A stretch of 38,183 nt of DNA from a virus (lineage: Duplodnaviria > Heunggongvirae > Uroviricota > Caudoviricetes): positions 1-38,183 of the IMG/VR virus record IMGVR_UViG_2541047893_000009. One strand, given 5' to 3'. The translations under genes were made by a program, and so were the position numbers. Numbering within the stretch: position 1 is the first letter of the stretch; every line of letters begins with the position of its first letter. The notes beneath the pieces were generated by a model, which made no database searches, had not been told where the DNA came from, and saw only the letters and a program-made list of their open reading frames with translations. This document shows positions 2,101-38,183 of this stretch, one piece after another.

Positions 2101-2529
2101 TTACTTTTTCGTTTCGGGTGTCGGATAAACAGCCAGATAAACGCAACCACAGCTGCCGAGGGTATCGGCTTCGCAGGTCAGCCCTTTTGCATACAGCGTG
2201 ACGGTATGCTGATGGCGGGGATTCAGTTCACCGCTGGTGAGCATGAGTTCCAGTTGTTTCATCAGCAGCGGAAAGGCCTGGTCCAGATGGTATGCATCCG
2301 CGTCGCTGAACCGGCCTCTGATACCGGCACGGTCGGCAAGGTAATGCAACCGGTTACCCTCCTGCACCAGACGTGCCCCGAAACAGGGCGTCACGGTGCA
2401 GGGCAGCCCCCACCAGGGGCGGTCGTGATTGTCGTCGGGATGCGTTGTCCCGGGCAGTGTGTCTGACACGATAAAGTCCTCACAGAAATCAGTTAAGAAT
2501 GGTTCGATGGTGGCGATAATTCGGCTCAT
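2101..2529 (-). CDS. cbeA: CbeA/YeeU/YfjZ/YafW-family antitoxin
   Basis: Translation contains ...SDTLPGTTHPDDNHDRPWWGLPCTVTPCFGARLVQEGNRLHYLADRAGIRG..., matching the YeeU family. The true start may be the in-frame GTG at about 2469 (protein beginning VSDTLPG), which would give about 122 aa. Confidence 0.85.
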   Translation of the reverse strand: MSRIIATIEPFLTDFCEDFIVSDTLPGTTHPDDNHDRPWWGLPCTVTPCFGARLVQEGNRLHYLADRAGIRGRFSDADAYHLDQAFPLLMKQLELMLTSGELNPRHQHTVTLYAKGLTCEADTLGSCGCVYLAVYPTPETKK

Positions 2530-2547
2530 CAGAATGCCCTTCCTGAC

Positions 2548-2769
2548 TCAGTTCAGGGTGACGCTCATCAGCCGGACATACGGGCCAAAACTGTCTTTAC
2601 GGCGTTCTGCAAACACAGCCAGCACACCGGGAATATCCTGCACTTCACGACCGGTATACGCTTCAGTGCTGCCGTGCCAGCGGTATTTGCCGGTACAGAA
2701 CGGAAAAAGACGGGATGCCGGATGTTGTTGGTGAATACGCATGGCTTCACCACGGGTGATGATTTTCAT
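2548..2769 (-). CDS. yeeT: YeeT/YkfH-family protein (DUF987)
   Basis: 73-aa translation MKIITRGEAMRIHQQHP...FPFCTGKYRWHGS...VRLMSVTLN matches the YeeT family as recalled; position between the radC-like and antitoxin genes is canonical. Confidence 0.8.
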   Translation of the reverse strand: MKIITRGEAMRIHQQHPASRLFPFCTGKYRWHGSTEAYTGREVQDIPGVLAVFAERRKDSFGPYVRLMSVTLN

Positions 2770-2837
2770 AGTGTGATACCTCTGAAGACAGAAGATAAAA
2801 GCGAAAACAGGTATGATGTGGTTGTAACGGTGACGGG

Positions 2838-3314
2838 TTAAAGCAGACCGTGTTCCGCAAAGGAGAAAACCTGGCTGCCACCGACTATCAGATGGTCCGG
2901 CACCCGGATATCCACCAGGCCCAGTGCCTGTACCAGACGTTCCGTGATAAGGCGGTCTGCCTTGCTGGGTGTGACTTCACCGGACGGGTGATTGTGCGCC
3001 AGTACCACGGCAGCGGCATTGTGGTACAGGGCGCGTTTAATCACTTCCCGGGGATGGACTTCCGTGCGGTTGATGGTGCCGGTGAAGAGGGTTTCACCGG
3101 CAATCAGCTTATTCTGGTTGTTCAGATACAGCACCCGGAATTCTTCACGCTCCAGTCCCGCCATGTTCAGAATCAGCCATTCCCGTGCCGCACGGGTGGA
3201 GGTGAAGGCCACGCCGGGTTCATGAAGATGGCGGTCCAGGGTTTTCAGGGCCCGCTGAATGAGGCTGCGCTCGCCGGGCGTCATCTCTCCTGGCAGAAAG
3301 GAAAGCTGTTGCAT
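2838..3314 (-). CDS. RadC-like JAB/MPN-domain protein (YeeS/YkfG/YfjY family)
   Basis: 158-aa translation with the JAB metalloprotease signature region HNHPSGEVTPSKADRLITERL; canonical position in CP4-type islands. Confidence 0.85.
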   Translation of the reverse strand: MQQLSFLPGEMTPGERSLIQRALKTLDRHLHEPGVAFTSTRAAREWLILNMAGLEREEFRVLYLNNQNKLIAGETLFTGTINRTEVHPREVIKRALYHNAAAVVLAHNHPSGEVTPSKADRLITERLVQALGLVDIRVPDHLIVGGSQVFSFAEHGLL

Positions 3315-19576: not shown

Positions 19577-19626
19577 TGTTGTCTCCTTTGTTGATGCAAT
19601 GATGTTTGTTTTATATGTGATAGATT

Positions 19627-20088
19627 ATGAGAACTATTATTCTCATTGTCAATGAGGTTTATGTGAATTTTGATTCTCTTTGCGCGTCGCGGTTCAAAGC
19701 TGAGCGTTCGCGGTTATCACTCAAGCAGGCTGAAGTAGCAGCCCTTTGTGGCGTTTCAAGAGAAATGTGGGGGAAATATGAACGAGGGGTTGCTGTTCCC
19801 GGAGGTGAGTTACTTGCAGCCTTTGCAAGAATTGGGGCCAATGTACAGTTCATTCTTACCGGGGAGTCATCAGGTATAACTTTATCACGTGATGAAATGG
19901 AGTTACTGCAGCACTACCGGCAGGCACCATTACAGGTCAAAGGTTCAGTTTTGTCGGCCTTGACTACTGGCTCCTCCAGAGAACGGGCGGAACAGGTTAT
20001 TCATGGAGATGTTCTGGGGAATGTTATCAAAGGTAACGTAACCATAGGAACAGGTGGAATAATGAACAAAAATACCAAGAGAAGATGA
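19627..20088 (+). CDS. XRE-family HTH repressor (candidate prophage immunity repressor)
   Basis: HTH LSLKQAEVAALCGVSREMWGKYERG; divergent from the early operon. The true start is possibly the in-frame GTG at 19663, because the ATG-initiated N-terminus overlaps the operator-like palindrome. Confidence 0.75.
   Translation: MRTIILIVNEVYVNFDSLCASRFKAERSRLSLKQAEVAALCGVSREMWGKYERGVAVPGGELLAAFARIGANVQFILTGESSGITLSRDEMELLQHYRQAPLQVKGSVLSALTTGSSRERAEQVIHGDVLGNVIKGNVTIGTGGIMNKNTKRR
19642..19656. promoter_or_regulatory. Candidate operator: perfect 7-bp inverted repeat CTCATTG-t-CAATGAG in the divergent repressor / early-operon control region
   Basis: Palindrome read directly at 19642-19656, between the Ner-like start (19576) and the body of the repressor gene. 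Confidence 0.4.
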
Positions 20089-21071
20089 GTAAAGAGAAGC
20101 AAACAGTTAACGGGGATGTGGGTAACGTTGTCAGCGGTGATGTTACCATTCATAACTATTCTGCTGACATACTTCCTTCGGCCCAGCAACCAATTTCGTT
20201 GCTGCAAAAACGCGATTTACACAGATTGATGGATGAATTGGTTGATCTGGGGGAAAGTAAGCGCGAGCTATGGATGACGATCCACACGAAACTTAATACC
20301 AAAACAGTTAATGAAATGACTGCGGCTGATTATCATGGTGCGGTTGAGATCCTTCAGAGATATGCACAACAGATCCAGAATATGAAGGACTGTAATCTTC
20401 TGGTCAGCAAAATAATGGCGCTTACTGACCCTGGGTATCGTCTTGACCGTGACAGATACTGTCTGAAGCATTTCGGTACAACCCATCTTAAAGGCCTAGA
20501 CAAAGAGCAGTTGCAGGCTGTGTTTGGTTATTTTGATGATCTGCTGAATATTCGTGATGAGAGTAAAACTCTATCACCTCCATCGGAAAGCGGTGCAAAA
20601 TCAGTCGCAACTGTACCAACCAGAAGCCGGAAGCCTCATGTAGTAGTGTTGGGGGGAGTGTTAGTTCTTGTAGCAATATTTTTCGTGGGAATGATTGTGT
20701 TCGCTGGTAAATGGGGAAATGCCAAAGCAGTAGCTTCTACTGAAACCAGCGTTTTTAACATTAAAACCAACAATAAAATAATAGAAGATTCCATCCCCGC
20801 ACTGCGCAGCATGTTTCCAGGGTTAAATAAGTACTCAGATGATTTCCATTCGGTTTCAAGCTACAAGCAAAAAACGGGCTGGCATACCCTTAAATTTACT
20901 GTATCAGCAAAGGCATCCGTCCCCGAAAATTATAGTGTTAAGGGCAAGGTTTGTTACATTAACATAAGCCCTGATGGTAGTTATGCTCGGGTTTTGACTG
21001 CTCCATGTCGTTCACTGCTACTTGATCAGCAAAGCACTCCTGACAGTAAATACCGTTTTATTCTTAAATAG
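20085..21071 (+). CDS. Single-pass membrane protein of unknown function (328 aa), translationally coupled to the repressor
   Basis: Its ATG overlaps the repressor stop (ATGA); central TM helix HVVVLGGVLVLVAIFFVGMIVFAG; AT-rich; N-terminus shares a GDV-GNV-G-VTI motif with the repressor C-terminus. Confidence 0.6.
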   Translation: MSKEKQTVNGDVGNVVSGDVTIHNYSADILPSAQQPISLLQKRDLHRLMDELVDLGESKRELWMTIHTKLNTKTVNEMTAADYHGAVEILQRYAQQIQNMKDCNLLVSKIMALTDPGYRLDRDRYCLKHFGTTHLKGLDKEQLQAVFGYFDDLLNIRDESKTLSPPSESGAKSVATVPTRSRKPHVVVLGGVLVLVAIFFVGMIVFAGKWGNAKAVASTETSVFNIKTNNKIIEDSIPALRSMFPGLNKYSDDFHSVSSYKQKTGWHTLKFTVSAKASVPENYSVKGKVCYINISPDGSYARVLTAPCRSLLLDQQSTPDSKYRFILK

Positions 21072-21152: not shown

Positions 21153-21743
21153 GTGATGAACATGGCAGGGATTCAGGTTATCGCAGGAAGTTTTCCTAAA
21201 GGGTGGGCAAGCATGGGGTTCGGTACCATCGTGTTTGCCAAAAAACCAAAACAAGGCTTTCCTGAAAATATTGTATTAAATCTGAAAGAAGAGCTTTTAT
21301 CGATTGAACTTGCGGATAGTGAAGAGGAAAGCCGTATAGGTAAGGCGGCAGGCGCAGGTTTGCTTGGTGGATTAATCTTTGGTGGTGCAGGGTTGGTCAT
21401 TGGAGGTTTGCTTGGTGCGGCGGACAAGACGAAAAAAACTATCACTTTTAAGGCAATGTTTACGGGAAATAGGTTACTTCTGGCTAAAACAGATTCAAAA
21501 ACTTTTGTAAAACTTCAGTCAATTGCTGCTGATAATGCCCATAACGCATCTGTAATCAACATGAAGCAAACTAATAGGGGCGATGTTTCTTCTCGTAAAC
21601 AACTAACAGAAAATCCACAGCAGCAAGACTTACCTGCGCCCGCTACAACAGTAAAAATGACTGCCAAAGATAAGTTAGAATCGGCTCTTGGGCTGGGAAT
21701 CATCGTTATAGCTGTTTGGGCAATAATACACTTCTTTTTTTAG
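21153..21743 (+). CDS. Glycine-zipper membrane protein of unknown function (about 194 aa)
   Basis: AAGAGLLGGLIFGGAGLVIGGLLGAA glycine-zipper TM segment plus a C-terminal TM (LGLGIIVIAVWAIIHFFF); the likely start is the ATG at 21162 with AAGGTG upstream; followed by a terminator. Confidence 0.6.
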   Translation: MMNMAGIQVIAGSFPKGWASMGFGTIVFAKKPKQGFPENIVLNLKEELLSIELADSEEESRIGKAAGAGLLGGLIFGGAGLVIGGLLGAADKTKKTITFKAMFTGNRLLLAKTDSKTFVKLQSIAADNAHNASVINMKQTNRGDVSSRKQLTENPQQQDLPAPATTVKMTAKDKLESALGLGIIVIAVWAIIHFFF

Positions 21744-21744
21744 T

Positions 21745-21770
21745 GCAGCCCTTCAGGGCTGTTTCTGTTC
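21745..21770 (+). terminator. Rho-independent terminator (stem CAGCCC/GGGCTG, loop TTCA, then TTTCTGTTC)
   Basis: Hairpin read directly, 2 nt after the stop of the 21153-21743 gene. Confidence 0.6.
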
Positions 21771-21780
21771 AGGAGGTATC

Positions 21781-22257
21781 TTAAGGATTATCCGGGGCGT
21801 TTTCCTGTTTGCCGTACTTCGGAGACGAACAACATTCTGTTGGCTGACCGGTGAGTTTACGTAACTCCTTCATGAGCAGCTCCTGATCGTAAACTGTCAT
21901 CAGTGCCGCAATGGTGGCATGCAGTGCATCGGGCAGTATCCAGGGTTGCCGGCCCGTGGGGCATATAACATCCAGCAGCTCATTCGTCCGACAGATACGC
22001 TCCTCGCCGTATGACAACAGGCCCTGTCCCGTGTATTCCTCTAGCCTGATCACTGTGCCACCCCGTGGCTTCTGCCAGGTCGTCAGATCTTCGCCATTCA
22101 TACGGCGCTCATTCTCCACGTCAGCAGCATCGACAATGACGCTGTTTCCGAGTTCCTGTTTCACCATCTCTTCTATCCGCGCCAGTACGTAACTTTTACC
22201 GCTGCCCACAGGACCGGACACAGTGACAGTGATGACCGGATTCAGTGTGTGCGTCAT
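21781..22257 (-). CDS. Small P-loop NTPase/kinase-like protein (158 aa)
   Basis: Walker A VSGPVGSGKSYV and a possible Walker B SVIVDAAD; convergent with the repressor-linked operon and divergent from the late operon. Confidence 0.55.
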   Translation of the reverse strand: MTHTLNPVITVTVSGPVGSGKSYVLARIEEMVKQELGNSVIVDAADVENERRMNGEDLTTWQKPRGGTVIRLEEYTGQGLLSYGEERICRTNELLDVICPTGRQPWILPDALHATIAALMTVYDQELLMKELRKLTGQPTECCSSPKYGKQENAPDNP

Positions 22258-25294: not shown

Positions 25295-26886
25295 CAAAAT
25301 CATCCGGAGTGATTTTAAACGCCGCTGGCGGCGGCCCCGAAGGGATGAGTCCCATGGACGGGAGGAATAACCTTGCTCCCGTTTTGCCTGATACCTCGGC
25401 GCTGGATGCCCCTCCCGTTCTGTTGCCTTACCAGCAGCGCTGGGTGGCAGACACCTCTCCGCTTAAGGTGATAGAAAAGAGCCGTCGTACCGGTATTACA
25501 TGGGCTGAGGCATCCGATAACGTACTGACCGCCGCCTCTTCTGCGCCAGCAGGCGGGATGAATGTGTATTACATCGCTTATAACCAGGACATGACCGTCG
25601 AATACATTCAGGCGTGTGCGATGTGGGCACGGGCATTCAACTATGCGGCCAGTGAAATTGAAGAAGGATTCTGGGAAGAGGACGACGACGACAAACACAT
25701 CAAGACTTACACCATCAAATTTCCTGACTCCGGCTTTCGTATTGTTGCGCTCTCCAGCCGCCCGTCTAACCTGCGTGGCCGTCAGGGTATTATTGTTATC
25801 GACGAAGCGGCGTTCCATGAGCAACTGGACGAACTGCTGAAAGCGGCGCTGGCGATGCTTATCTGGGGGGGAAAGGTACGCGTTATCTCCACCCATGACG
25901 GTGACGACAATCCGTTCAATACGCTTATCGGGGATATCCGTGCCGGACGTCAGGGAGGCAGCATACATCGCATCACTTTCCGGGAAGCCGTATCTGAGGG
26001 GCTGTTCCGGCGCGTCTGTCTGCGCACCGGGAAGGAATGGTCGGAGGCATCCGAGCAAGCCTGGATGGCATCGGTGTACAAATTCTACGGTGCCGGCGCA
26101 TCCGAAGAGCTTGACTGTATTCCGGCCAACGGTGGCGGTGCCTGGCTGTCCCGTGCCCTGATAGAGTCCCGCATGTCCGCTGATACGCCGGTATTGCGTC
26201 TGACCTGCAAGGAAGGTTATGAACTGCTGTCTGATGAGGTTCGCTTCCGCGAGACGCAGGACTGGCTTGATGAGTATCTGAAACCCTTGCTGGAGGCACT
26301 CCCCACTGATGCCCGCTCTTTCCTGGGGCGCGACTTTGGCCGTAGCGGTGATTTGTCGGTGGACTATCCCCTGCTGCAGGAGAAGAACCTGGTACGACGC
26401 GTGCCATTCGTACTGGAGCTGCGTAACGTGCCGTTCAGACAGCAGGAGCAAATCACCTGGTATCTGATGGATGGCCTGCCCGGTCTGCTGGGTGCAGCGT
26501 TTGATGCCCGTGGTAATGGTGCCTATCTGGCTGAATACGCCATGCAGCGCTACGGCTCCAGCCGGGTTCAGCAGGTGATGCCAACCGAAGGCTGGTACCG
26601 GGAGCATATGCCTCCGGTCAAAGCTGCACTGGAAGACGGTAACCTGGTGGACTTACCAAAGGATGAAGACACACTGGATGACCTGCGGGCCGTTCAGGTG
26701 GTGAACGGTGTCCCCCGCGTACCGGAGCAACGCTCAAAAGCAAAGGCTGACGGTGGTAAACGCCACGGGGATTCAGCCATCGCACTGGCGCTGGCGTATT
26801 TCGCCAGCCGTGAAATTAACAAAGGGCCGGTGAAGGCAAGCTCACGCCGTCGTCGTCAGGCGGCCCGTATGCTGGAGGGATTCTGA
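25291..26886 (+). CDS. Terminase large subunit (Mu gp28-like)
   Basis: 531-aa ORF with an ATPase region (KSRRTGITWAEAS) and a nuclease-type C-terminus; position upstream of portal. Confidence 0.85.
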   Translation: MTKSSGVILNAAGGGPEGMSPMDGRNNLAPVLPDTSALDAPPVLLPYQQRWVADTSPLKVIEKSRRTGITWAEASDNVLTAASSAPAGGMNVYYIAYNQDMTVEYIQACAMWARAFNYAASEIEEGFWEEDDDDKHIKTYTIKFPDSGFRIVALSSRPSNLRGRQGIIVIDEAAFHEQLDELLKAALAMLIWGGKVRVISTHDGDDNPFNTLIGDIRAGRQGGSIHRITFREAVSEGLFRRVCLRTGKEWSEASEQAWMASVYKFYGAGASEELDCIPANGGGAWLSRALIESRMSADTPVLRLTCKEGYELLSDEVRFRETQDWLDEYLKPLLEALPTDARSFLGRDFGRSGDLSVDYPLLQEKNLVRRVPFVLELRNVPFRQQEQITWYLMDGLPGLLGAAFDARGNGAYLAEYAMQRYGSSRVQQVMPTEGWYREHMPPVKAALEDGNLVDLPKDEDTLDDLRAVQVVNGVPRVPEQRSKAKADGGKRHGDSAIALALAYFASREINKGPVKASSRRRRQAARMLEGF

Positions 26887-35773: not shown

Positions 35774-36109
35774 ATGTCACAGACCCCATCCGATACTTTT
35801 AAATTGTCTTATCCCTTCACCACTGCTGCAGGCACCAGAATTGAGCTGGTTGAACTGAAACGCCTGACGGTAAAAGACCTGAAGCAGGTGCGCAAAATCA
35901 GCAAAAACCCGGCAGACTGGGACGAACCGCTGATTGCCCGCAGTACTGGTCTTCTCCCGGAAGATCTCGACAATATGGATCTGGCTGATTACCTGCAGTT
36001 ACAGAAACGATTTCAGCTCATCACGGGGATGGGTGAGAGCAACCAGGGCGCTGACGCAGGCGCAGGGGCTGCTGGCGAGATGGTTCCGGTTTCAGCCGGG
36101 GGAGATTGA
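35774..36109 (+). CDS. Tail assembly chaperone candidate (possible frameshift-extended product)
   Basis: 111-aa ORF just upstream of the tape measure gene; overlapping +1-frame ORF 35934-36191; G-run near its stop. Confidence 0.5.
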   Translation: MSQTPSDTFKLSYPFTTAAGTRIELVELKRLTVKDLKQVRKISKNPADWDEPLIARSTGLLPEDLDNMDLADYLQLQKRFQLITGMGESNQGADAGAGAAGEMVPVSAGGD

Positions 36110-36266
36110 TGCCCTCGATACTGACGATCTGGAGATGTGGCTGGAGCAGGCTGAAGAGCAAATCAAAAGCGAGTACGGCGACAAATCATAGTACAGACAG
36201 CCGCCAGTAGCGGCTGTTCTGCGTTATCCCCTCACGTCTTTTCACCTTCCCCGGAGGTTAACCACT

Positions 36267-38183
36267 ATGTCGGGACAGTTTTCAGTCGGCGTTGTTATCG
36301 GCGGGATGATTGGCAGCACATTCCGTTCTGCAATGAGCGGTACCCGCCGTGCGCTTGATTCCCTGAGCGATACCTCACGCCGCCTGCAGGAACGTCAGAA
36401 CGCTTTAACCCGTGCAACAGAACGTTATGGTCAACTGGGTTCTTCCCGGATGCAGCATCTCAACAGCGAGCTGCTGCGGGTAAGCCGCACCATGGAGCAA
36501 ATTGAGCGCCAGCAGCGCCGTCTGTCAGCGGCATCCGCTACCAGTGATGCGCTGAAAGCTAACCGCATGGCGCTGTATGGTCAGGGGATTGAAGCGTATG
36601 GCATGGCACAGACTGTTTATCATACGGTTTCCCCTGCCGTTCAGCAGTCCATGTCTTTTCAGGACAAAATGATTGATATGTCGATCACCGCAAAATATGA
36701 CAATAAAACGCGGGATGCACTTGCCGGACAGATAAAAGGCTGGGCGCTTAAATACAATCAGTATCAGGATGAGCTGCAGGAGGCGGTGGGTTCACTCATC
36801 AGCGACAATATTGATAATGTGTCAGATATCGGTTTTCTGATGCCGGATATTGCCCGCGCGGCAACGGCAACACGCACGTCTGCTCAGGACTGGGCAAAAG
36901 TGGCCGCAGTCTGGCAAAACTCCCTGAAAGGTGCGGCCAGAGATTTTGGTGCCGTTCAGAATATTATGGCTTATGCCGGTGACCAGGGGTCATTTGAAAT
37001 CCCGGATCAGGTCAAGTGGATGCAGTCCCTGGCCCCAATGATGGCGGGTCTTGCCAGTGGAAAAGAGGCTGTTGCTGAAATCGGGGCCAGTCTCCAGATA
37101 GCAAAAATCGGTGCAGGTTCCACCGACGAAGCAGCCAATAATTTTAAAAACTTTCTTACCAAAATTTTTGCCCGCGATACTCAGAAACAGTTTGCTGATC
37201 TGGGTATTGATTTGCAGGGATCTATTGCGAGTTATAAAGCTGCGGGGATCTCTCCGATTGAAGGGATGTTGAGTGTTATAGAACGTTACCTCAATGCCAA
37301 AAGCCCCGAAGCGCTGGCCGGCTTCAAATCAGCCATGAAAATAAAGAATGATACGGCAAGAGATGAGGCACTTCAGGCTCTGGCGAAAAACTTTGGTCTG
37401 GGCGATATGTTCGCGGATATGCAGGTCATGGCATTTATCCGCCCGATGCTGGCCAACATGGACAGATATCGAGAGATCCGTGCCGGTGCTCTCAGGGCTG
37501 CGGATAACGATTTGCTTGCCAGTGCTTATGATCAGCGGCTGAAATCTCCCCTTGAAGCCACTAAAACACTTATGGTCAGCAGTCGCGATCTGGCAATTAC
37601 GCTGGGCGATCAATTAGCTCCATCTTTTATTTCTCTGACTCAGGAACTGCTCCCACTCATTCAGGGGACAAAACACTGGGTAGCGACTCACCCGCAATTT
37701 GTCAGTGGGGCTTTTAAGCTCATCAGTGCGCTCCTTGCGATTAAGATAGCGACTATTGGTCTCAAACTGGGGCTGAATCTCCTTATTTCCCCCTTTGTGA
37801 ACGTCTGGAAAACTACTGTTTTACTCCGGACCAACTGGCATCGACTGACTACCGCACTCGGAGAAGGTGGCAAATTACGCTGGCTTGTCACTGGATTCAG
37901 CCGACTGACCAGCGGAGGACTGAAACTCAGCAAAGTTCTGGCGGGCAGCCTCGTTCGCGGTTTTATGAGCGCTGCACGTGCCGTTCTCTGGATTGGGCGA
38001 GCGCTGATGATGAATCCCATCGGTCTCGTTATCACCGCTGTCGCGACAGCAGCTTACCTTATCTACCGCAACTGGGGGGCTGTCAGTGGTTGGTTTAAAC
38101 AGCGCTGGGCTGACATTCAGGAAGCCTTTAACGGCGGCATTGTGGGAATTGGTAAGTTGCTGATTAACTGGTCGCCGGCAGGC
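36267..38183 (+). CDS. Tail tape measure protein, 5' partial (open reading frame continues past the window end)
   Basis: ATG at 36267 with GGAGG SD; read through to 38183 without a stop (639 codons); helix-rich, hydrophobic segments typical of tape measure; absent from the ORF track because it has no stop in the window. Confidence 0.75.
   Translation, partial: MSGQFSVGVVIGGMIGSTFRSAMSGTRRALDSLSDTSRRLQERQNALTRATERYGQLGSSRMQHLNSELLRVSRTMEQIERQQRRLSAASATSDALKANRMALYGQGIEAYGMAQTVYHTVSPAVQQSMSFQDKMIDMSITAKYDNKTRDALAGQIKGWALKYNQYQDELQEAVGSLISDNIDNVSDIGFLMPDIARAATATRTSAQDWAKVAAVWQNSLKGAARDFGAVQNIMAYAGDQGSFEIPDQVKWMQSLAPMMAGLASGKEAVAEIGASLQIAKIGAGSTDEAANNFKNFLTKIFARDTQKQFADLGIDLQGSIASYKAAGISPIEGMLSVIERYLNAKSPEALAGFKSAMKIKNDTARDEALQALAKNFGLGDMFADMQVMAFIRPMLANMDRYREIRAGALRAADNDLLASAYDQRLKSPLEATKTLMVSSRDLAITLGDQLAPSFISLTQELLPLIQGTKHWVATHPQFVSGAFKLISALLAIKIATIGLKLGLNLLISPFVNVWKTTVLLRTNWHRLTTALGEGGKLRWLVTGFSRLTSGGLKLSKVLAGSLVRGFMSAARAVLWIGRALMMNPIGLVITAVATAAYLIYRNWGAVSGWFKQRWADIQEAFNGGIVGIGKLLINWSPAG

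Follow-up and report, generated by a model that had tools for sequence, protein, structure and literature searches.

The immunity region of a Mu-like prophage

The window analysed here (IMG/VR record IMGVR_UViG_2541047893_000009, taken over its whole length of 38,183 nucleotides) is a Mu-like transposable prophage of Escherichia coli, sharing 100% identity with strain DSM 101139 and 99.9% with IAI39 and CE10. In this prophage a gene for a repressor-like XRE-family helix-turn-helix (HTH) protein (19627..20088, plus strand; 153 aa as annotated) is followed by a gene for a 328-aa membrane protein (20085..21071, plus strand; WP_000031883.1 in E. coli IAI39, phrog_10002), and the C-terminal tail of the first protein carries a short motif that recurs at the N-terminus of the second. 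The two genes overlap by 4 nt (ATGA, 20085-20088), through which the 328-aa gene is translationally coupled to the repressor gene. Together with a third gene for a 196-aa protein they form a plus-strand unit that diverges from the early operon, in which the minus strand encodes a Ner-like protein, a small HTH protein, a DUF3102 protein and the transposase ahead of the remaining early region. The 2.5-kb region around the motif pair is present at ≥80% coverage in 97 of 5,426 complete E. coli genomes.

An earlier note on this DNA, made from the sequence without database searches, had called the first protein a repressor, a reasonable label that rests on the XRE-type HTH domain and on synteny. Pfam HTH_31 and HTH_3 both score above cut-off, the PHROG matches are to transcriptional regulator and repressor families, and the gene diverges from the early lytic operon with operator-like repeats in between, as is characteristic of XRE-family temperate-phage repressors, so that the protein is likely to be the prophage repressor. 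The two repeats (19625-19648 and 19659-19682, without strand) are partly palindromic, the first reading TTATGAGAA-N6-TTCTCATTG and the second being a 79% copy of it, and they overlap a strong, near-consensus sigma-70-like promoter of the leftward early operon (TTGACA-17-CATAAT, 19652..19624, minus strand), a position that suggests an operator role and binding by the repressor. Since the annotated ATG at 19627 lies inside the first of these repeats and homologues begin with MNFDSL, the true start is probably the GTG at 19663, which gives a protein of 141 aa. In the AlphaFold2 (AF2) model the HTH domain (residues 17-78) is followed by two helices (88-117) and a disordered tail (119-153), with predicted local distance difference test (pLDDT) values above 88 at residues 21-80 and below 40 at 119-153. 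The tail motif, QVIHGDVLGNVIKGNVTIGTG, spans Q123-G143 (19993..20055, plus strand) and contains the core at 20005-20049 that had first been noticed. It is followed by a basic cap, NKNTKRR (20065..20085, plus strand), and most motif-bearing tails of related repressors likewise have a K/R-rich end; such a cap might act as an aggregation 'gatekeeper' or as a contact with membrane or DNA.

The product of the downstream gene had been described as a membrane protein, and it indeed has one transmembrane (TM) helix, preceded by a cytoplasmic domain that we identified as Flk_N. Its N-terminal motif, QTVNGDVGNVVSGDVTIHNY, covers Q6-Y25 (20100..20159, plus strand; core as first noticed, 20112-20153) within residues 1-30, which are disordered in the monomer AF2 model (pLDDT ~42). 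The all-helical Flk_N domain follows (residues ~31-160; 20175..20564, plus strand; pLDDT >90), then a single hydrophobic TM segment, VVVLGGVLVLVAIFFVGMIVFAG (residues 186-208; 20640..20708, plus strand; assigned from the sequence, with an AF2 helix of low confidence at 191-204), and finally a C-terminal alpha/beta domain that is presumably periplasmic (residues 221-328; 20745..21068, plus strand; pLDDT >90). The Flk_N domain is supported by PF27202 (Flk_N), precomputed on the 99%-identical protein P0001, by a match of residues 19-147 to the NCBIfam Flk model NF007987 (E 2.9e-12) and by a BLASTP match to Flk of E. coli K-12 (E 2e-5, 25% identity across 133 aa). The NF007987 score of 46.5 bits, against an equivalog cut-off of 353, falls short of full-length Flk equivalence, and on these sequence comparisons the homology of the 328-aa protein with Flk, a flagellar regulator, is confined to the domain level.

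The shared motif is protein-level and beyond chance

The likeness between the two proteins, first described as a duplicated GDV-GNV-G-VTI pattern, proved exact in its coordinates, its translations and its one-codon (3-nt) indel. Positions 20005-20049 encode GDVLGNVIKGNVTIG (repressor residues G127-G141) and positions 20112-20153 encode GDVGNVVSGDVTIH (residues G10-H23 of the 328-aa open reading frame, ORF), the two aligning with an indel of one codon. At the DNA level the two cores are direct repeats 107 nt apart with 28/42 identical bases (67%), the longest exact runs being only a few bases, and the identities fall on codon positions 1, 2 and 3 as 11/14, 12/14 and 5/14, a pattern which indicates that the similarity is held at the protein level. 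The local BLOSUM62 score of the pair is 58, a value reached by none of 20,000 composition-preserving shuffles (mean 20, sd 4.3, maximum 51), and when the N-termini of the window's 178 ORFs of ≥60 aa are compared with the repressor tail, that of the 328-aa ORF ranks first (58; next 28). In the six-frame translation of the window the pattern G[DN]V..G[DN]V..G[DN]V occurs only at these two sites, and a motif profile likewise returned the two sites only (E ~1e-12; next match E 2.4), so no third copy was found in the prophage by profile search. A chance likeness between the two segments is excluded.

The earlier note had also likened the pattern to short hexapeptide repeats, a comparison that did not hold: the spacing of the G[DN]V units is 4 and 5 rather than 6, and no Hexapep or bactofilin match was found in Pfam. 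A hexapeptide left-handed beta-helix or bactofilin fold was rejected for both proteins, neither having a Pfam match of this kind at E ≤ 0.1, with only about three units that are not 6-periodic. An RNA-level element was also tried and rejected (fold z-score -1.18; 25/200 shuffles folding at least as well; no Rfam match).

Both copies of the motif are conserved and travel together

In 18 homologues of the 328-aa protein, with identities as low as 44% and from Salmonella, Serratia, Yersinia, Morganella and others, the N-terminal motif is nearly invariant, with G10, G13, N14, V15, V16, S17, G18, V20, I22 and Y25 unchanged in all 18. The motif is present in every orthologous pair, including that of the most divergent orthologue (P0021, 44% identical), whose partner tail still matches. 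In the repressors paired with these homologues the tail remains 33-37/41 identical while the HTH domain falls to 23-37/68, and, conversely, repressors whose HTH domain is 49-54/68 identical but which precede another downstream gene have another tail. These contrasts in identity indicate that the tail is a module travelling with the downstream gene and not with DNA-binding specificity; tail and downstream gene form a mosaic module.

Homologous repressors that have no such partner lack the tail as well, as the earlier note had proposed to check. Sister repressors from the same Mu-like neighbourhood (P0093/L126) have a homologous HTH domain fused to a LexA-type S24 peptidase, and these S24-bearing repressors have neither the tail nor a matching N-terminus in the downstream proteins. 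A matching partner is also missing for repressors with plain helical tails. In one group of Lonsdalea and Pseudomonas prophages (L006-L010, L016, L020, L022 and L096) the repressor has a helical C-terminal tail, ...VLKLV[IV]N[HR], and the Flk_N-type protein begins with an extra helix, DNELQELADQVAGSL..., followed by an internal G-rich motif with no match to the repressor. No matching partner for the Flk_N proteins that are paired with helical-tail repressors was found within ~4 kb, and coupling in this variant may be of a different, helix-helix kind.

The pairing recurs with at least ten motif classes

We surveyed 120 loci with relatives of the repressor, drawn from genomes and viral contigs, and in the 50 non-redundant pairs compared the last 40 repressor residues with residues 1-45 encoded by the next ORF. 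The median score was 43 for cognate and 19 for non-cognate combinations, 28/50 adjacent pairs scored above the 99th percentile of composition-preserving shuffles (0.5 expected), and 16 cognates ranked first of 50; in 3-4 further loci the partner lies slightly further downstream. The matched sequences fall into at least 10 unrelated classes, each present on both partners of its own locus: GDV.GNV..GNVTI (the window), V.VSG.GNRVAGRDY.E, FNG..GQF..IIN, FHG.VGQV..GD, GQV.A.NIYNI, G.QAAGR[ND]I.N, HR[FI]ALGDY.E, HGGQF..INNY, KNVAGRDII and a RHIM-like class, [VI]Q[VI]G.V.G. Co-variation extends to the fine scale, as at L099, where a double change has placed HR[FI]ALGDY on both partners. The recurrence does not depend on how the loci were chosen, since sampling from the Flk_N side, independently of repressor homology, gave a matching tail on an upstream HTH protein of another subfamily in 4/5 loci.

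Across the 28 pairs (543 aligned codons) the identity at codon positions 1, 2 and 3 was 62/69/36%, and the same codon was used at 42% of identical residues. These figures argue that selection on the proteins, and not gene conversion or recent duplication, has kept the pairs matched; the codon-position evidence rules out the other two. The suggestion of the earlier note that the likeness reflects a recent local duplication must accordingly be dropped, given also that both copies have been kept in orthologues that are only 44% identical.

Most of these loci are Mu-like, and the largest class also occurs in P2/186-like prophages, including Escherichia phage 520873. E. coli prophages carry at least two unrelated motif classes, each matched within its own pair. 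In most related pairs the gap between the paired genes is -4 to ~35 nt. The bodies of the other downstream partners comprise a Zn-ribbon plus TM type, multi-TM proteins and short tail-anchored proteins, and are mostly membrane-anchored; for all their varied architecture, these partners begin with a motif that matches their own repressor. The matched segments (mean 19.7 aa) are rich in N (2.7x), G (2.1x), Q (1.5x) and V (1.4x), with I at 1.1x, and depleted of L (0.17x), P (0.10x) and K (0.73x). In the largest class, NRVAGRDY, the membrane partner frequently carries two pseudo-repeats, against a single one in the repressor.

Two departures from the simple two-gene arrangement were seen. At L072 (3001-4870) two tandem HTH repressor genes both end in NR[IV]AG.DYNETKG and the partner begins with VNSNGSNNRVAGRDFHE, so that three proteins share one motif. 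At the unrelated loci L128 (2232-2504) and L129 (1095-1361) a conserved gene of 88-90 aa (MEH[RS]Y[IL][ST]E.RP.FD...) lies directly upstream of the Flk_N gene, at L129 between the repressor and the Flk_N gene.

The Flk_N family and other features of the prophage

The Flk_N family is small, with 74 representatives at E ≤ 1e-3 among 1.84 billion representative proteins, and nearly every member starts with a variable G/N/Q-rich motif. E. coli K-12 flk (L122, 5951-6946) encodes two tandem Flk_N-like repeats (~28-146 and 160-290) behind a Pro/Gly-rich N-terminus that stands in place of the beta-prone motif, and has no adjacent HTH gene; chromosomal Flk may have descended from the phage-type family, or the reverse. 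Homologues of the C-terminal domain of the 328-aa protein (221-328) also occur by themselves, in proteins of 130-200 aa whose N-termini resemble signal peptides or lipoboxes (e.g. P0138-P0144) and which share FS[VI].TDN....LP.IR...PGLDKY. A search of solved structures gave no convincing match to the 328-aa protein or to its C-terminal domain, and no full-length relative of the protein was found among 50,697 phage records. Among characterised phages only Escherichia phage 520873 carries a related pair, the partner gene being unannotated and frameshifted: in this genome (L127; NC_049344.1, record 2495-3065) the partner downstream of gp04, a 'transcriptional regulator', reads in three frames, from a frameshift or sequencing errors, and its N-terminus still matches the gp04 tail.

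The third gene of the repressor transcription unit (21153..21743, plus strand; phrog_12025) encodes a 196-aa protein in which a glycine-zipper-like segment, GKAAGAGLLGGLIFGGAGLVIGGLLG, is combined with a TM helix at the C-terminus; the shared motif is absent from it. A terminator-like hairpin at 21745..21762 (plus strand), found by a consensus scan only, is the probable end of the repressor operon, and holin, lysis and late genes follow. Convergent with the operon is a gene for a 158-aa P-loop protein (21781-22257, minus strand; phrog_3787), for which the RefSeq label 'ABC transporter ATPase' looks over-specific, its matches being weak and of the AAA/KAP-type Walker-A kind only. In the E. coli IAI39 copy of the prophage (L001) the DUF3486 gene (25450-25995) and a gene of the tail region (36096-36377) have annotated internal stops, and this copy may therefore be defective.

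A possible link between the repressor tail and the Flk_N membrane protein

We propose that the matched, disordered and beta-prone motifs tie the repressor tail to the Flk_N membrane protein and that the latter controls the repressor, a reading to which we assign a probability of roughly 0.45. The view of the earlier note that the motifs mark an interaction interface or co-assembly is indirectly but strongly supported by the match being kept in all orthologous pairs and by at least 10 classes that change together. On the mechanism that we favour, the association would be direct and specific, between the C-terminal tail of the repressor and the cytoplasmic N-terminus of the Flk_N membrane protein that is translated with it. 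Because evolution has preserved the likeness of the two motifs rather than complementarity, in-register, like-on-like (parallel) beta stacking would be the most economical mode of association, with Gly at the turns and ladders of Asn and Val, on the principle of the HET-s/NWD2, BASS and Bab/Agp pairs. On some trigger the membrane protein would cluster and its N-terminal motifs would nucleate an assembly that recruits repressor tails, thereby removing the repressor from the operators at 19625-19682 and de-repressing the Ner/transposase early operon. The outcome would be an SOS-independent switch for induction or commitment, in the place that is held by the S24 autocleavage domain in the sister repressors, and the different motif classes would insulate co-resident prophages from one another. 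In its boldest form this proposal becomes a prion-like, amyloid-templating lysogeny switch of Mu-like and P2/186-like phages of Proteobacteria, in which a cross-beta assembly nucleated by the Flk_N protein would convert and sequester the repressor through its tail; the commitment to lytic growth would be irreversible, SOS-independent and written in at least 10 orthogonal codes. This we consider doubtful; if true, it would be the first amyloid signalling pair with a transcription factor as output and a non-NLR (NOD-like receptor) sensor.

Several observations weigh against control of the repressor by the membrane protein through such an assembly. Neither partner belongs to the known amyloid-signalling classes, there being no NLR/STAND or TGP sensor and no Bell/HeLo effector, and both proteins are co-translated in the lysogen, so that a constitutive interaction would need a further regulatory layer or trigger in order to switch. 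Some Flk_N proteins carry the G-rich motif without a matching repressor tail (the Lonsdalea and Pseudomonas variants and the island L128), from which it follows that the motif may serve mainly for self-association. The tail and N-terminal versions keep side-specific differences (an extra L; IK versus VS). The direction of control is also ambiguous, as the two pseudo-repeats on the membrane partner would, under the HET-s paradigm, make the repressor the template.

This last ambiguity leads to the alternative that the pairing is real and its logic reversed, the repressor tail restraining or activating the membrane protein in a manner resembling a toxin-antitoxin (TA) system or an amyloid effector. 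The membrane protein would then be the output (for instance exclusion of superinfecting phage, abortive infection, an addiction toxin or a helper of lysis), set free or switched on once the repressor has gone or its oligomeric state has altered. An HTH protein whose disordered C-terminal tail is coupled to a small membrane protein does recall type II TA operons, phrog_6521, which matches the N-terminal part of the 328-aa protein, is labelled 'moron / membrane protein', and most partners are small, membrane-anchored and varied in architecture; moreover, the presence of two pseudo-repeats on the membrane protein of the NRVAGRDY class and one on the repressor is what marks the effector side in HET-s-type systems. 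However, no match to a toxin or defence family was found in PADLOC, Pfam or NCBIfam, although a new toxin might escape such searches, the nearest relative, Flk, is a regulator and not a toxin, and known amyloid pairs make the opposite assignment, the effector carrying the C-terminal and the sensor the N-terminal motif. The exchange of the tail for an S24 domain in the sister repressors also points to a function that acts on the repressor, and we regard the reversed logic as rather unlikely, if the strongest of the alternatives.

A lesser probability falls to the motifs being independent self-association tags, each oligomerising its own protein, with a likeness left over from an old local duplication and parallel constraints. 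A G-rich motif persists at the N-terminus of Flk_N proteins even in the absence of a matching repressor tail, repressors need to oligomerise and these have no S24 or other obvious dimerisation domain, and each side has its conserved peculiarities. Independent tags would nevertheless drift apart, yet the copies have stayed matched across at least 10 classes, several HTH subfamilies and diverse partner architectures, down to double changes such as that at L099, and the saturated synonymous sites imply that selection has long maintained the match. Improbable, in our view, is a common third factor that reads both motifs, be it a degron reader (ClpXP, Lon or FtsH), a chaperone or a phage antirepressor. 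C-terminal tails do control the proteolysis of other phage repressors, as with the Mu repressor and ClpXP, and both motifs are terminal, exposed and disordered; but a host factor would impose one motif per host, which is at odds with the unrelated classes in E. coli prophages, there is no third motif copy in the window, and nothing points to a co-varying reader encoded by the phage. To a chance resemblance of low-complexity segments, a recent DNA duplication or an RNA- or DNA-level element we attach next to no weight, short, G/N/V-rich and directly repeated as the segments are, in view of the shuffles, the divergence at third codon positions, the deep conservation, the weak RNA fold and the lack of an Rfam match.

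Comparison with known systems

The closest parallel to the proposed link between repressor and membrane protein is Bab/Agp (BASS11), an abortive-infection pair of E. coli prophage defence islands for which amyloid formation has been proven (bioRxiv 10.1101/2024.11.07.622273). As in the window, the genes are adjacent, collinear and located in E. coli prophages, a motif of ~20-25 residues is found C-terminally in the upstream product and N-terminally in the downstream one, and this motif is G/N-rich, with glycines as strand breakers, and disordered beside folded domains. The motif sequence is another one, however, and the proteins differ, Bab being a Bell-type membrane-targeting death effector and Agp a TPR-GreA/B-C-PIN sensor, whereas the pair described here consists of an HTH repressor and a Flk_N membrane protein and its amyloid nature is a sequence-based proposal.

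BASS1-10 and the fungal HET-s-NWD2, PP and sigma motifs (bioRxiv 10.1101/2020.01.06.895854) similarly join the C- and N-termini of neighbouring products of overlapping or close ORFs and form orthogonal families, and they share the enrichment in Q/N/G/V/I, the depletion of K/P/L, the length of ~25 aa and the occasional pseudo-repeats (Dyrka et al., bioRxiv 10.1101/2020.01.06.895854). They link NLR receptors (NB-ARC/NACHT plus repeats) to effectors that are enzymatic or of the Bell/HeLo type and have been described chiefly from multicellular Actinobacteria and Cyanobacteria, whereas the pairs described here lie in temperate-phage immunity regions of Gamma- and Betaproteobacteria, have no NTPase and carry the C-terminal motif on a transcription factor. 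HTH proteins, repressors and phage are not mentioned in the BASS papers (bioRxiv 10.1101/2020.01.06.895854). Measured by what defines an amyloid pair, the window has a shared C-/N-terminal motif in adjacent collinear genes, the expected motif length and composition and overlapping or close ORFs; its N-terminal-motif partner has no NTPase, TPR or WD match, with a Flk_N, TM and periplasmic architecture instead, and its C-terminal-motif partner is an XRE-family HTH protein and not a Bell/HeLo, TIR or CHAT effector. The RHIM/BASS3 tetrad [IV]-Q-[IVLC]-G is absent from both window motifs and present on both partners at L107 and L115, and PADLOC returned no defence-system match. As the partner proteins differ, we do not file the pair as a member of a BASS family and propose instead that it works like one.

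For the membrane partner, the relevant comparison is with Flk (Fluke/RflH), a regulator of the type III secretion switch of the flagellum in Salmonella and E. coli that is cytoplasmic with a C-terminal inner-membrane anchor (PMC13344023). The cytoplasmic helical domain is homologous, and the topology of Flk is shared by relatives of the phage protein that are ~200 aa long, whereas the 328-aa protein has in addition a periplasmic domain after its TM helix and is found in a prophage. For the repressor, the LexA/CI-type S24 repressors have a homologous HTH domain (SREMWGKYERG core) in the same Mu-like neighbourhood, with a C-terminal module that varies: S24 confers RecA-stimulated self-cleavage, whereas the repressor in the window has two helices, a motif tail and a matched membrane partner. 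Antirepression without cleavage is reportedly achieved in vibriophage VP882 by Qtip, which is said to be a small, soluble, inducible protein that sequesters or aggregates the cI repressor and shares no motif with it. Inactivation of a repressor by assembly would be the outcome proposed here as well, the difference being that the partner in the window is bound to the membrane, transcribed together with the repressor and matched to it in motif.

A literature search on amyloid or prion-like signalling with phage repressors, on Flk with prophages and on PF27202 found no description of this pairing. Paired terminal motifs in adjacent genes are known as a principle; what appears new is that they would couple a phage repressor to a Flk_N membrane protein. 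The repressors concerned lack the RecA-sensitive S24 domain. For the exit from lysogeny of these Mu-like and P2-like prophages the matched partner offers a testable route, through holding the repressor at the membrane or through its templated aggregation. If confirmed, the pairing would provide naturally orthogonal tags of ~20 residues and a first functional handle on the Flk_N domain family, and it would extend amyloid-type signalling from pairs of NLRs and death effectors to transcriptional control in phages of common enterobacteria.

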